Assembly (NCBI RefSeq): GCF_003018255.1
Contig: NZ_CP027440.1
Origin: Escherichia coli
Lineage (GTDB): Bacteria > Pseudomonadota > Gammaproteobacteria > Enterobacterales > Enterobacteriaceae
Reading direction: 5' to 3' (one strand)
DNA length: 64,000 nt
The notes beneath the pieces were generated by a model. That model did not search any database, had not been told where the DNA came from, and worked only from the letters and a program-made list of their open reading frames with translations. Positions 59,660 through 64,000 of this stretch are shown here, in pieces. The number at the start of each line of letters is the position of its first letter. Position 1 is the first letter of the stretch. The position numbers and the translations under genes are program-made.

Positions 59660-59872
59660 TGCGATTCTCCAGACAGGGCAAATTCCAGCACATATTACCC
59701 AAACTTATAGGTTGCGACGAGATGACGCGTTAACACTTCTGCAAAATTCAGGATAAATAACGTCCAGCCCCCTCACTTTTGGTGAATGGCTGAAGCCAAC
59801 GTCATGTAGTGATATGATAGAAGTATTCGTGTCTGAGATTGTCTCTGACTCCATAATTCGAAGGTTACAGTT

Positions 59873-60805
59873 ATGATCATCGTTACCGGCGGCGCGGGCT
59901 TTATCGGAAGCAACATCGTTAAAGCCCTGAATGATAAAGGCATCACCGATATTCTGGTGGTGGACAACCTGAAAGACGGCACCAAGTTTGTGAACCTGGT
60001 GGATCTGGATATCGCGGACTATATGGATAAGGAAGACTTCCTGATCCAGATTATGGCTGGCGAAGAGTTCGGCGATGTCGAAGCGATTTTCCACGAAGGC
60101 GCGTGCTCTTCCACCACCGAGTGGGACGGCAAGTATATGATGGATAACAACTATCAATACTCCAAAGAGCTGCTGCACTACTGTCTGGAGCGCGAAATCC
60201 CGTTCCTGTATGCCTCTTCCGCAGCCACTTACGGTGGACGCACCTCCGACTTTATTGAATCCCGCGAATATGAAAAACCGTTGAATGTCTACGGTTACTC
60301 AAAATTCCTGTTTGATGAATATGTTCGCCAAATCCTGCCTGAAGCGAACTCACAGATTGTTGGCTTCCGTTATTTCAACGTTTATGGACCGCGTGAAGGC
60401 CATAAAGGCAGCATGGCGAGCGTCGCTTTCCATCTCAACACCCAGCTTAATAACGGTGAATCACCGAAGCTGTTCGAAGGTAGCGAGAACTTCAAACGTG
60501 ACTTCGTCTATGTGGGCGATGTGGCAGATGTAAACCTGTGGTTCCTGGAAAATGGCGTTTCCGGCATCTTCAACCTCGGTACTGGTCGTGCGGAATCCTT
60601 CCAGGCAGTAGCAGATGCTACGCTTGCTTATCACAAGAAAGGCCAAATCGAATACATTCCGTTCCCGGATAAACTGAAAGGCCGCTACCAGGCGTTCACG
60701 CAGGCAGATCTGACAAATCTGCGCGCGGCGGGTTACGACAAACCGTTTAAAACCGTTGCCGAAGGCGTAACGGAATACATGGCCTGGCTGAATCGTGACG
60801 CATAA
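59873..60805 (+). CDS. hldD: ADP-L-glycero-D-manno-heptose 6-epimerase
   Basis: 310 aa, [23 protein letters not shown]… (Rossmann motif); start of the LPS inner-core operon. Confidence 0.9.
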
Positions 60806-60814
60806 GAGCTCTGC

Positions 60815-61861
60815 ATGAAAATACTGGTGATCGGCCCGTCTTGGGTTGGCGACATGATGATGTCGCAAAGTCTCTATCGCACGCTCCAGGCGCGCTATCC
60901 CCAGGCGATAATCGACGTGATGGCACCGGCATGGTGCCGTCCATTATTATCGCGGATGCCGGAAGTTAACGAAGCTATTCCTATGCCTCTCGGTCACGGA
61001 GCGCTGGAAATCGGCGAACGCCGCAAACTGGGTCATAGCCTGCGCGAAAAACGTTACGACCGCGCCTACGTTTTACCCAACTCCTTCAAATCCGCATTAG
61101 TGCCTTTCTTCGCGGGTATTCCTCATCGCACCGGCTGGCGCGGCGAAATGCGCTACGGTTTACTCAACGATGTGCGTGTGCTGGATAAAGAAGCCTGGCC
61201 GCTGATGGTGGAACGCTATGTGGCGCTGGCCTATGACAAAGGTATTATGCGTACCGCACAAGATCTGCCGCAGCCATTGTTATGGCCGCAGTTGCAGGTG
61301 AGCGAAGGTGAAAAATCATATACCTGTAATCAATTTTCGCTTTCATCAGAACGTCCGATGATTGGTTTTTGCCCGGGTGCGGAGTTTGGTCCGGCAAAAC
61401 GCTGGCCACACTACCACTATGCGGAGCTGGCAAAGCAACTGATTGATGAAGGTTATCAGGTGGTTCTGTTTGGCTCGGCGAAAGATCATGAAGCGGGCAA
61501 TGAGATTCTTGCCGCTTTGAATACCGAGCAGCAGGCATGGTGTCGTAACCTGGCGGGGGAAACACAGCTTGATCAAGCGGTTATCCTGATTGCAGCCTGT
61601 AAAGCCATTGTTACTAACGATTCTGGCCTGATGCACGTTGCGGCGGCGCTCAATCGTCCGCTGGTTGCCCTGTATGGTCCGAGTAGCCCGGACTTCACAC
61701 CGCCGCTATCCCATAAAGCGCGCGTGATCCGCCTGATTACCGGCTATCACAAAGTGCGTAAAGGTGACGCTGCGGAGGGTTATCACCAGAGCTTGATCGA
61801 CATTACTCCCCAGCGCGTACTGGAAGAACTCAACGCGCTATTGTTACAAGAGGAAGCCTGA
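60815..61861 (+). CDS. waaF: ADP-heptose:LPS heptosyltransferase II
   Basis: 348 aa, GT9 family; follows hldD. Confidence 0.9.
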   Translation: MKILVIGPSWVGDMMMSQSLYRTLQARYPQAIIDVMAPAWCRPLLSRMPEVNEAIPMPLGHGALEIGERRKLGHSLREKRYDRAYVLPNSFKSALVPFFAGIPHRTGWRGEMRYGLLNDVRVLDKEAWPLMVERYVALAYDKGIMRTAQDLPQPLLWPQLQVSEGEKSYTCNQFSLSSERPMIGFCPGAEFGPAKRWPHYHYAELAKQLIDEGYQVVLFGSAKDHEAGNEILAALNTEQQAWCRNLAGETQLDQAVILIAACKAIVTNDSGLMHVAAALNRPLVALYGPSSPDFTPPLSHKARVIRLITGYHKVRKGDAAEGYHQSLIDITPQRVLEELNALLLQEEA

Positions 61862-61864
61862 CGG

Positions 61865-62845
61865 ATGCGGGTTTTGATCGTTAAAACATCGTCGATGGGC
61901 GATGTTCTCCATACGTTGCCCGCACTCACTGATGCCCAGCAGGCAATCCCAGGGATTAAGTTTGACTGGGTGGTGGAAGAAGGGTTCGCACAGATTCCTT
62001 CCTGGCACGCCGCCGTTGAGCGAGTTATTCCTGTGGCAATACGTCGCTGGCGTAAAGCCTGGTTCTCGGCCCCCATAAAAGCTGAACGCAAAGCGTTTCG
62101 TGAAGCGCTACAAGCAGAGAACTATGACGCAGTTATCGACGCTCAGGGGCTGGTAAAAAGCGCGGCGCTGGTGACGCGTCTGGCGCATGGCGTAAAGCAT
62201 GGCATGGACTGGCAAACCGCTCGCGAACCTTTAGCCAGCCTGTTTTACAATCGTAAGCATCATATTGCAAAACAGCAGCACGCCGTAGAACGCACCCGCG
62301 AACTGTTTGCCAAAAGTCTGGGCTACAGCAAACCGCAAACCCAGGGCGATTATGCTATCGCACAGCATTTCCTGACGAACCTGCCTACAGATGCTGGCGA
62401 ATATGCCGTATTTCTTCATGCGACGACCCGTGATGATAAACACTGGCCGGAAGAACACTGGCGAGAATTGATTGGTTTACTGGCTGATTCAGGAATACGG
62501 ATTAAACTTCCGTGGGGCGCGCCGCATGAGGAAGAACGGGCGAAACGACTGGCGGAAGGATTTGCTTATGTTGAAGTATTGCCGAAGATGAGTCTGGAAG
62601 GCGTTGCCCGCGTGCTGGCCGGGGCTAAATTTGTAGTGTCGGTGGATACGGGGTTAAGCCATTTAACGGCGGCACTGGATAGACCCAATATCACGGTTTA
62701 TGGACCTACCGATCCGGGATTAATTGGTGGGTATGGGAAGAATCAGATGGTTTGTAGGGCTCCGGGGAATGAGTTGTCTCAATTGACAGCAAATGCTGTT
62801 AAGCAATTCATTGAAGAAAACGCTGAAAAAGCTGCCATGATTTAA
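61865..62845 (+). CDS. waaC: ADP-heptose:LPS heptosyltransferase I
   Basis: 326 aa, GT9 family; follows waaF. Confidence 0.9.
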   Translation: MRVLIVKTSSMGDVLHTLPALTDAQQAIPGIKFDWVVEEGFAQIPSWHAAVERVIPVAIRRWRKAWFSAPIKAERKAFREALQAENYDAVIDAQGLVKSAALVTRLAHGVKHGMDWQTAREPLASLFYNRKHHIAKQQHAVERTRELFAKSLGYSKPQTQGDYAIAQHFLTNLPTDAGEYAVFLHATTRDDKHWPEEHWRELIGLLADSGIRIKLPWGAPHEEERAKRLAEGFAYVEVLPKMSLEGVARVLAGAKFVVSVDTGLSHLTAALDRPNITVYGPTDPGLIGGYGKNQMVCRAPGNELSQLTANAVKQFIEENAEKAAMI

Positions 62846-62871
62846 ATTACAACTCTTTAATAGATAATTTT

Positions 62872-62905
62872 GAAATAAAATCAGCTTCCTTGCTGATTTT
62901 ATTTC
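62872..62905. terminator. Bidirectional rho-independent terminator between convergent waaC and waaL
   Basis: Perfect 14-bp inverted repeat gaaataaaatcagc / gctgattttatttc around a 6-nt loop, A/T-rich on both flanks. Confidence 0.65.
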
Positions 62906-62914
62906 ACATATTCA

Positions 62915-64000
62915 TTACTTATCTAATAAACATTGGTCCGATTGTGCTTTAAAATAAGCACAAAGCAATATTATGGTGACAAACACAGCAGTCGGAACCG
63001 GTTTAGAAAAGAGTATTACATCACTTAGGCCTACTACCAGTAGTGAAAAAAGCAAGATTAAAATATAAGGTTCTTTAGCAGTTCTTAAGGCATATATGAA
63101 TATTGCTGAAAAGGCTAAAATTGTTAATGCTACTCCAGGAATACCACGCGTTGATAACGTATCTATGAGATCGTTATGCAAATGAGAATCTACAAAGGGT
63201 AAAGCGCCACTTAATCTAGGCTCTTTCTCTTCTAGTTCATGTATTTTTTCCGCACGTTTTTCCAGTGATTGTCCTATTGGAGAATATGTTTTTAAACCAA
63301 CTTCATACATTGCCAGACGGGCACCGACTGAAGTTCTGGTGTTATCATGCGAATAATTAACTAAATCCCTATTTAAGTCATTCATTCTCGTAAGTAATGT
63401 ATCTTTAAAAGAAAATACACCTGCTAATAATGCAATCGCAATAAAACAATATAACTTATAATTAATTCGCTTATTAATATAACTATCCATTACGATTAAT
63501 AGTAACGCAAAGAATGGAAACACTAATATGGCTGCACGCGTTTCAGTTACTATAACAGCACATAAGCTAAGCATGAAGTTAATTGTATATAATGTTGTTT
63601 TATGTCTAAAGTCGGATTTTAAAATGAGAATTGATGCCAGTAAAGAAGGGAAAAGGATGATGTAGCCTGCTGTTGTAGCGTGGGACGCTGATAATGCAAC
63701 ACGGTCGACGTTTAAATAGAAATGTTGCCACATGGCATGCGCAAAAAAAAGTAACTGCGTTGCCAGGGATGCGAACAGAATTAGTTTCCCAAATTTTATT
63801 TTGGTTCTCATCTCATCTTTAGCAAAAAGAACTAAGAAAATAAAAGCACTACACAAGGCAATTTTTCCAGTTTCCATTGGGCCACGATATGCATTGGTAT
63901 AAACCGAGCCTGAAACTTTATAATGTGAATACCAGATGATATTAACGATACCCAAAAGACATAATGAGATGAAAATTAACAAAGTAGGATTATTAGTTAT
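62915..64000 (-). CDS. waaL: Polytopic membrane protein, probable O-antigen ligase (C-terminal part; 5' end beyond the window)
   Basis: Frame is open from 62915 to the window end; AT-rich and highly hydrophobic with multiple TM segments; convergent with waaC, as waaL is in some LPS core types. Assignment is positional and compositional. Confidence 0.55.
   Translation of the reverse strand: MTNNPTLLIFISLCLLGIVNIIWYSHYKVSGSVYTNAYRGPMETGKIALCSAFIFLVLFAKDEMRTKIKFGKLILFASLATQLLFFAHAMWQHFYLNVDRVALSASHATTAGYIILFPSLLASILILKSDFRHKTTLYTINFMLSLCAVIVTETRAAILVFPFFALLLIVMDSYINKRINYKLYCFIAIALLAGVFSFKDTLLTRMNDLNRDLVNYSHDNTRTSVGARLAMYEVGLKTYSPIGQSLEKRAEKIHELEEKEPRLSGALPFVDSHLHNDLIDTLSTRGIPGVALTILAFSAIFIYALRTAKEPYILILLFSLLVVGLSDVILFSKPVPTAVFVTIILLCAYFKAQSDQCLLDK

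Follow-up and report, generated by a model that had tools for sequence, protein, structure and literature searches.

The region under study, at the end of the window (the whole 64,000-nucleotide stretch of Escherichia coli DNA that was analysed), is almost certainly the kbl-proximal end of a waa (rfa) LPS core locus of the R1 type, one of the five E. coli core types, in the common haplotype that lacks htrL. An R1-type locus, a kbl-hldD spacer without htrL and a convergent waaL are all already known, and the latter two traits, which can appear unusual, are normal for R1. The original prediction had described a strain-variable, non-K-12 organisation of the waa genes, and both gene order and allele bear this out. 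It had also held that the core type could not be fixed from the window; this was too cautious. R1 can be assigned from the window alone, because of the identity of WaaL, waaL DNA that detects no other E. coli waaL allele, and the linkage of this waaL allele to waaV. The coordinates of all features are in Table 1.

Table 1. Features at the kbl-proximal end of the waa locus (window coordinates).
Feature	Position	Strand	Details
kbl	58463-59659	-	ends at 59659
kbl-hldD intergenic spacer	59660-59872		exactly 213 bp; htrL-less haplotype
site of the htrL (yibB) cassette in K-12 and O157:H7	59763/59764		1222-bp cassette at this site, absent from the window
candidate promoter-like element upstream of hldD	59788-59818	+	GGCTGAAG-N17-TATGAT; TG one base before the -10 hexamer
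hldD (rfaD), ADP-glyceromanno-heptose 6-epimerase, 310 aa	59873-60805	+	NCBIfam equivalog NF008360, 677 bits (cut-off 452); rfaD in the JNE23-011 annotation
waaF (rfaF), heptosyltransferase II, 348 aa	60815-61861	+	NF008162, 752 bits (cut-off 569); Pfam Glyco_transf_9
waaC (rfaC), heptosyltransferase I, 326 aa	61865-62845	+	NF008204, 634 bits (cut-off 437)
low-GC, core-type-specific DNA (start)	62764-64000		31-38% G+C; about 52% upstream
perfect inverted repeat, probable bidirectional intrinsic terminator	62871-62906		15 bp per arm, 6-nt loop; within the 69-bp waaC-waaL spacer
waaL, R1-type O-antigen ligase	62915-64000	-	3' 1086 nt (residues 57-417 and stop); first 168 nt past the window end

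The window contains 1086 of the 1254 nt of waaL and no diagnostic outer-core transferase genes; the remainder of the locus was read from a near-identical genome, E. coli JNE23-011. The waaL product is confirmed as an O-antigen ligase homolog by its Wzy_C domain (Pfam, E 2.5e-17, 63.5 bits against a gathering cut-off of 31.7). It also matches the solved WaaL structure 7TPG (E 9.3e-13 in a PDB sequence search) and keeps the residues aligned to R215, R288 and the HLHN motif of K-12 WaaL. NCBIfam has no model naming R1 or K-12 WaaL, and typing therefore rested on reference genomes. Comparison of the protein with WaaL of each core type, as the original prediction had proposed, gave an R1 match: over 361 residues, identity was 361/361 (100%) with JNE23-011, 99.7% with UTI89, 38% with R4, 34% with K-12 and 23-27% with R2 and R3. 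Of 5426 complete E. coli genomes, 1833 carried R1 waaL DNA, at ≥95% identity in all but one (90-95%). This frequency, 33.8%, accords with the published 35.4% for R1, the commonest core type (PMC13293308). R1 waaL detected no other E. coli waaL allele at the DNA level in the 5426 genomes, even with sensitive word-11 blastn, and waaV stood next to the allele in 1832 of 1834 genomes. In the annotated genomes that were fetched, waaL converges on waaC in R1 and R4, and is co-directional with it in the K-12 type, R2, R3 (O157:H7) and the E2348/69 hybrid, as the original prediction had stated for R1/R4 and K-12.

JNE23-011 is 100% identical to positions 59400-64000 of the window, with 3 mismatches over the 18.6-kb overlap, none of them in the region studied. 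The 4.6-kb region has 100% identity in only two genomes of the collection, and 98.8% identity to ST95-type genomes. Past waaL, JNE23-011 carries genes for GT2 (waaV), GT8 (waaW), rfaY, GT8 (waaT), waaO, rfaP, waaG and rfaQ, followed by a divergent waaA; the annotated UTI89 genome has the same order. The waaV, waaW and waaT genes that the original prediction had suggested looking for beyond the window are thus present in JNE23-011, rather than the K-12 set. Published R1 typing primers, which yield an 842-bp waaV-waaW product (PMC13293308), match the JNE23-011 locus sequence with 0 mismatches at 19198 and 20039, giving 842 bp, the expected size.

We considered R4, the other core type with a convergent waaL. 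The R4 genomes E5 and TUM14664 have the same waaL orientation and the same 213-bp spacer without htrL, and the RfaY, WaaT, WaaO, RfaP and WaaG proteins of E5 are identical to those of JNE23-011. However, the WaaL comparison already refutes this reading, with only 38% identity between WaaL of the window and that of R4. Moreover, the window allele fails to detect R4 waaL DNA even in sensitive mode, the neighbour of waaL in JNE23-011 is the GT2 gene waaV and not the GT25 gene waaX, and the R4-F typing primer finds no site in the JNE23-011 locus sequence at up to 2 mismatches. We regard an R4 locus as wholly improbable. A hybrid or rearranged locus, with an R1 waaL beside non-R1 outer-core genes past the window, is very unlikely. 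Rare rearrangements of this kind are documented, as in ECOR46, which holds both R1 and R4 waaL (PMC13293308), and the window ends inside waaL, whose neighbours are not seen directly. Nonetheless, waaV adjoins this allele in nearly every genome that carries it, and JNE23-011, a genome 100% identical across the region, has the canonical R1 order. Hence, we read the locus as R1, and the LPS of the source strain would be expected to have R1 chemistry.

Homology to K-12 and R4 ends at 62763/62764, within waaC, and G+C content drops there too. The C-terminal tail of WaaC is R1-specific from about codon 300; the tail differs among the five core types, and the protein is 319-331 aa long in the others. 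The genes hldD, waaF and waaC would form a three-gene operon ending at the hairpin that follows waaC, and their products would synthesise ADP-L,D-heptose and attach the first two inner-core heptoses.

The original prediction had placed a perfect terminator between waaC and a membrane-protein gene on the opposite strand, and we found minus-strand waaL facing waaC across a perfect 15-bp inverted repeat. The predicted RNA folds have energies of -19.4 kcal/mol (z -6.9) for the plus strand and -18.9 kcal/mol (z -5.3) for the minus strand, and 0 of 200 shuffles were as stable. The hairpin and the genes around it are real, not chance patterns. The hairpin is identical in UTI89; the one that occupies this position in R4 is unrelated. 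The stem is A+T-rich (4 G-C pairs), with a U-rich run inside the 3' arm of the extended stem (GCUGAUUUUAUUUCA) and no separate tail, as expected for a palindrome flanked by A/T; termination efficiency is uncertain because of these two properties. The hairpin is probably an intrinsic terminator that acts in both directions, on the hldD-waaF-waaC transcript and on the waaQ...waaL transcript, and would end both converging units, preventing read-through of each into the other. The only match in an Rfam scan of positions 58400-64000 with E values up to 1 was to a plant microRNA, at the hairpin and below threshold (29 bits, cut-off 62); we took it as chance.

The spacer between kbl and hldD was said to be about 213 bp long and to lack the htrL (yibB) gene found there in K-12. 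It is exactly 213 bp, and the corresponding 1435-bp interval of K-12 MG1655 does contain htrL (b3618). The sequences flanking the cassette site match K-12 over 104 nt on the left, with 2 mismatches, and over 48 nt on the right, with none. With the cassette removed, the remaining 213 nt of K-12 are colinear with the window spacer in a multiple alignment. The 61 nt at 59764-59824 are diverged from K-12, yet they align colinearly with the stretch that immediately precedes hldD in K-12. A replacement of 1283 nt by 61 nt was rejected, since the cassette-removed alignment yields a clean 1222-bp insertion/deletion and a diverged flank; in a strict local alignment of the 61-nt stretch to the 1283-nt K-12-specific stretch, the score was within the range of shuffles. 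The sequence upstream of hldD also suggests a promoter: a candidate element retains its motif and spacing in haplotypes with and without htrL, despite the divergence of the 61 nt around it. A consensus promoter scan did not list this element.

The colinear 213-bp spacer is common to genomes of R1 (UTI89), R4 (E5 and TUM14664) and a K-12-type B2 strain (AVS0283), and to E2348/69; that of R2 (65COLEC) is more diverged. G+C content is 36.6% in the K-12 interval and 37.1% in the htrL coding sequence, with 51.5% for the whole window, and 1429 of the 1435 positions of the interval are identical between K-12 and O157:H7. Gain of htrL would fit better than repeated loss, because the same empty site occurs in several core types and in a much more diverged R2 haplotype, and the cassette is low in G+C and hardly differs between K-12 and O157.

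The original prediction saw in these traits, together with a nearby adhesin, a hint of an extraintestinal background. On such a reading, the absence of htrL would be a strain- or pathotype-specific deletion marking an extraintestinal pathogenic lineage; htrL is indeed present in K-12 and O157:H7, and many close matches to the region are ExPEC strains of phylogroup B2 (UTI89, IHE3034, APEC O1). By contrast, htrL lies between kbl and hldD in only 1951 of 5426 genomes, and its absence, in about 3470 of 5424 (64%), is the majority state, shared by the laboratory B strains C41(DE3) and Rosetta2 and by commensal or animal isolates. The identical empty site across core types and the low-GC, near-invariant cassette favour gain over deletion, and R1 has no significant pathotype association apart from an R3-EHEC effect, being the commonest type in commensals too, at 36.9% (PMC13293308). 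Homologues of the adhesin, a trimeric autotransporter of the UpaG/EhaG type, occur in 4158 of 5426 genomes, BL21 and EHEC among them. Because R1 is common in commensals, htrL absence is the majority state and the adhesin is found in most E. coli, these traits give no support for an extraintestinal background, and we consider a lineage-marking deletion highly improbable.

Presence of htrL strongly follows core type. By exact counts, it is present in 139 of 1833 R1 genomes, with 92% lacking it; in an even-step sample of 59 genomes, it was present in 15/15 of R3, 5/11 of the K-12 type, 0/6 of R4 and 0/5 of R2. This tabulation is a small new descriptive fact on a gene of unknown function. It is conceivable, although we think it unlikely, that htrL is tied to outer-core type far more tightly than the 3.3-kb distance by itself demands, in which case HtrL/YibB could act on particular core chemotypes and not merely hitch-hike with the waa haplotype. 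A PDB sequence search with HtrL gave matches at chance level only.

On the other strand, waaL would be the last gene of a long convergent waaQ operon (waaQ-G-P-O-T-Y-W-V-L), the genes of which are separated by gaps of at most 81 nt in JNE23-011. A JUMPstart element (RF01707, 55.2 bits, cut-off 35) lies upstream of rfaQ, outside the window, at 26699-26737 of the JNE23-011 locus sequence; the operon would thus start about 9 kb past the window, behind a JUMPstart/ops leader. This leader suggests that the distal genes depend on RfaH, and would be reached by RfaH antitermination in this strain. The R1 WaaL is expected to act as an inner-membrane ligase, transferring undecaprenyl-diphosphate-linked O-antigen to the finished core, where the beta-glucose side branch that WaaV adds would be the acceptor. 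In R1, O-antigen is reported to extend from a beta-Glc that is added by WaaV (PMC3526765, citing Heinrichs et al. 1998). One low-GC cassette, with its left edge within the final 27 codons of waaC, may hold both the waaL allele and waaV, and the two would travel together because the glucose added by WaaV is the acceptor for WaaL.

Although the region adds little beyond annotation, the R1 assignment predicts the core epitope, the O-antigen attachment site and the core-dependent phage receptors presented. K-12 is an unusual reference here, and a difference from K-12 is no evidence of a pathogenic background.

Compared with known waa loci, the region differs in nothing of substance from the R1 locus (prototype F470; also UTI89, APEC O1, ATCC 25922 and BL21/B strains). 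It shares with R1 the order hldD-waaF-waaC followed by convergent waaL, a WaaL that is 99.7-100% identical, the hairpin and the 213-bp kbl-hldD spacer and, as read through JNE23-011, the downstream waaV, waaW, waaY, waaT and waaO and the 842-bp typing amplicon. The R4 locus is alike in its convergent waaL ending the waaQ operon, its htrL-less spacer, a waaC-waaL hairpin and near-identical waaW to waaQ genes, but it has a WaaL of only 38% identity, waaX (GT25) in place of waaV (GT2), a different WaaC tail (319 aa), and another hairpin in a 47-nt waaC-waaL spacer. The K-12 locus (MG1655) resembles the region in hldD, waaF, the first 300 codons of waaC and its overall place between kbl and waaA. 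Two independent differences set K-12 apart: the 1222-bp htrL cassette upstream of hldD, which B2 strains with a K-12-type locus, ST131 for example, lack, and an unrelated waaL allele (34% identical) on the same strand as waaC; its outer-core genes are waaU, Z, J, B and S. Within the wider Wzy_C/WaaL family, represented by 7TPG (Cupriavidus metallidurans WaaL), the window protein shares the Wzy_C domain, a multi-pass membrane architecture and the Arg, Arg and His-x-His-Asn positions that are conserved in the periplasmic loops, and the very high divergence between its E. coli alleles (23-38% identity) is usual for the family.

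The segment at 59660-64000 belongs to an ordinary waa locus of the R1 core type, with the majority, htrL-less haplotype. The gap between kbl and hldD, which lacks htrL (yibB) as first described, was borne out by the ORF list and the raw sequence. The product encoded on the minus strand from 62915, which had been noted as a membrane protein opposite waaC, falls in the O-antigen ligase family by its Pfam match (Wzy_C) and also matches the WaaL structure from Cupriavidus metallidurans (7TPG; E 9e-13), identifying the gene as waaL. Its alignment with K-12 WaaL has 30% identity, and residues opposite R215, R288 and the HLHN motif of the K-12 protein, which we take to be catalytically important, are kept. 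The perfect repeat reported between waaC and the convergent gene was found as a 15 bp inverted repeat with a 6-nt loop, and RNA hairpins are predicted for both strands of the spacer (-19.4 and -18.9 kcal/mol; no shuffle was as stable). With the genes, the hairpin and the convergent waaL all located, every part of the first observation was confirmed.

Features of the window, with positions, strands and supporting evidence
Feature	Position or length	Strand	Evidence or description
Rhs-family protein, 1344 aa	24916-28950	plus	RHS repeats, RHS core, DUF6531
Trimeric autotransporter adhesin, UpaG/EhaG kind, 1750 aa	38968-44220	plus	ESPR signal, YadA head and stalk repeats, YadA anchor
waaH (yibD), HepIII glucuronosyltransferase gene	56155-57189	minus	intact
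kbl	58463-59659	minus	ORF list and raw sequence
kbl-hldD gap	213 bp		ORF list and raw sequence
hldD/rfaD	59873-60805	plus	NCBIfam equivalog model, far over cut-off
waaF	60815-61861	plus	NCBIfam equivalog model, far over cut-off
waaC	61865-62845	plus	NCBIfam equivalog model, far over cut-off
waaC-waaL spacer	69 bp		ORF list and raw sequence
Inverted repeat in waaC-waaL spacer	62871-62906		
waaL	from 62915, continues beyond window end	minus	Pfam Wzy_C

The original prediction held that the core type could not be fixed from the window. We compared the 361 WaaL residues in the window with WaaL references from annotated genomes of every type. Identity was 100% to R1 JNE23-011 and 99.7% to R1 UTI89, as against 38% for R4 (E5 and TUM14664), 34% for K-12 (MG1655 and AVS0283), 27% for the E2348/69 hybrid, 26% for R2 (65COLEC) and 23% for R3 (O157:H7). 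Of 5426 complete genomes, 1833 contained DNA of the window waaL allele, all but one of them with at least 95% identity (90-95% in the exception), and none of the remaining genomes gave a match, word-11 blastn included; waaL and waaV occurred together in 1832/1834. Based on these identities, the distribution of the allele and its linkage to waaV, we conclude that the window alone suffices to call R1. The frequency of R1 waaL, 33.8%, agrees with the published 35.4% (PMC13293308).

Positions 59400-64000 match two E. coli genomes, JNE23-011 and JNE112863, at 100% identity, the next best reaching 99.4%; since no other genome in the collection matches fully, the source strain belongs to a sparsely sampled lineage. 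Across an 18.6-kb overlap, JNE23-011 differs from the window by three mismatches (50080, 51454 and 52161), none of them in 59660-64000. Beyond waaL (417 aa), JNE23-011 carries GT2 waaV, GT8 waaW, rfaY, GT8 waaT, waaO, rfaP, waaG, rfaQ and a divergent waaA, an R1 gene order that matches UTI89 and includes all of the waaV, waaW and waaT genes that had been suggested for checking. The LPSTyper R1 primers match JNE23-011 exactly, 842 bp apart, as expected for the product, and the R4 typing primer was not found in this locus (PMC13293308).

The association of a convergent waaL with R1 and R4 was correct for the annotated loci of all types: waaL converges on waaC in R1 and R4, and is co-directional with waaC in K-12 (following it on the same strand in MG1655, as first stated), R2, R3 and the E2348/69 hybrid. 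Homology to other core types ends within waaC, near codon 300 (62763/62764), where G+C falls from ~52% to 31-38%. Type-specific DNA thus begins inside waaC, so that the C-terminal tail of WaaC differs among all five core types; WaaC is 326 aa long in the window versus 318-330 aa in other types.

The kbl-hldD interval of MG1655 spans 1435 bp and, again as first stated, includes htrL (b3618). It shares with the window 104 nt adjoining kbl, two of them mismatched, and 48 nt adjoining hldD, all of them identical. Because these flanks are shared and the 213 nt remaining after removal of the insert are colinear with the window, the difference amounts to a 1222-bp cassette at 59763/59764. The ~61 nt adjoining the insertion point on the hldD side (59764-59824) have diverged between htrL-plus and htrL-less haplotypes; within them, GGCTGAAG-N17-TATGAT, with a TG one base upstream, is kept at equal spacing in both, and is probably a conserved extended -10 promoter of hldD. 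G+C is 36.6% for the K-12 interval, 37.1% for the htrL coding sequence and 51.5% for the whole window.

Among the annotated loci, MG1655 and O157:H7 F7349 carry htrL, with 1429/1435 positions of the interval identical; JNE23-011, UTI89, 65COLEC, E2348/69, E5, AVS0283 and TUM14664 lack it. The empty 213-bp site is common to the R1, R4, K-12-type B2 and E2348/69 genomes. In 65COLEC (R2; 10836-12029 of its locus, L004), the htrL-less spacer is also 213 bp but is much more diverged, and appears clearly to be an older form. The annotated rfaD of this genome is 981 nt versus 933 elsewhere, and together the two features are consistent with a foreign-derived R2 haplotype reaching left of the outer-core genes. 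The sharing of the empty site across types, its older form in R2 and the near-invariance of the cassette favour a gain of htrL over its repeated, precise loss, as judged within E. coli genomes.

We detected htrL in 1951/5426 genomes. A chimeric query joining htrL, the conserved genes and R1 waaL was covered to at least 80% in only 139. A second chimeric query, with all five waaL alleles, was sampled in even steps down the ranking, yielding 59 classifiable genomes.

Genomes with and without htrL, by core type
Set	Core type	htrL-plus	htrL-less
All genomes	R1	139	1694
All genomes	non-R1	1812	about 1779
Even-step sample	R1	2	20
Even-step sample	R3	15	0
Even-step sample	K-12	5	6
Even-step sample	R4	0	6
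Even-step sample	R2	0	5

The R1/R3/K-12/R4/R2 proportions in the sample (37, 25, 19, 10 and 8%) reproduce those published (35, 26, 18, 12 and 8%; PMC13293308), and the counts indicate that the combination in the window is the standard R1 state. Within the species, R1 without htrL ranks among the top three configurations by frequency. Among K-12-type genomes in the sample, those with htrL were mostly laboratory K-12 strains, and B2 strains such as ST131 were htrL-less. The strong association of htrL with core type, probably arising from physical linkage and population structure, is a mildly new item; neither the typing paper (PMC13293308) nor the literature searched was found to mention it. A PDB sequence search returned no solved relative of HtrL_YibB, and we know of no function for this family.

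The suggestion of an extraintestinal background was not supported, as none of these features is a specific pointer to such a strain. Among commensals, R1 is the type found most often (36.9%), and the typing study reports no strong pathotype association except that of R3 with EHEC (PMC13293308). Loci of R1 type lacking htrL include the laboratory B strains C41(DE3) and Rosetta2, and homologues of the adhesin occur in 4158/5426 genomes, BL21 and EHEC included. The window adhesin allele is covered to at least 80% in only 523 genomes, and is 100% identical in JNE112863. Elsewhere in the window, the Rhs gene is presumably a polymorphic toxin locus, and waaH is intact versus annotated as frameshifted in O157:H7 F7349 (7495-8530 of its locus, L006).

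We propose that hldD, waaF and waaC make up one operon of three genes, serving heptose activation and inner-core heptosylation, and that in R1 the waaQ operon, whose genes are separated by gaps of at most 81 nt, ends with waaL. A JUMPstart element (RF01707, 55 bits) lies in the leader of the waaQ operon. JUMPstart is a recruitment site for RfaH antitermination, with an established role in the waaQ operon, which would be RfaH-dependent in the source strain. Both converging transcripts would terminate at the palindromic hairpin, which lies between the stop codons of waaC and waaL. WaaL would ligate Und-PP-linked O-antigen to the core. The attachment residue in R1 is the beta-glucose added by WaaV, according to the summary of Heinrichs et al. 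1998 in PMC3526765, and this would explain why the linkage of waaL to waaV is near-perfect.

The interpretation of the locus as strain-variable, non-K-12 and R1/R4-like was right, and the feature is textbook strain variation that is already known. The E2348/69 (EPEC) locus (L005, 14199-22396) combines an R2-like rfaL and a waaK-like N-acetylglucosaminyltransferase with a K-12-like rfaS, an arrangement that PMC13293308 describes as a K-12/R2 hybrid. In R4, the waaC-waaL hairpin is unrelated to that of R1, but is equal in strength.
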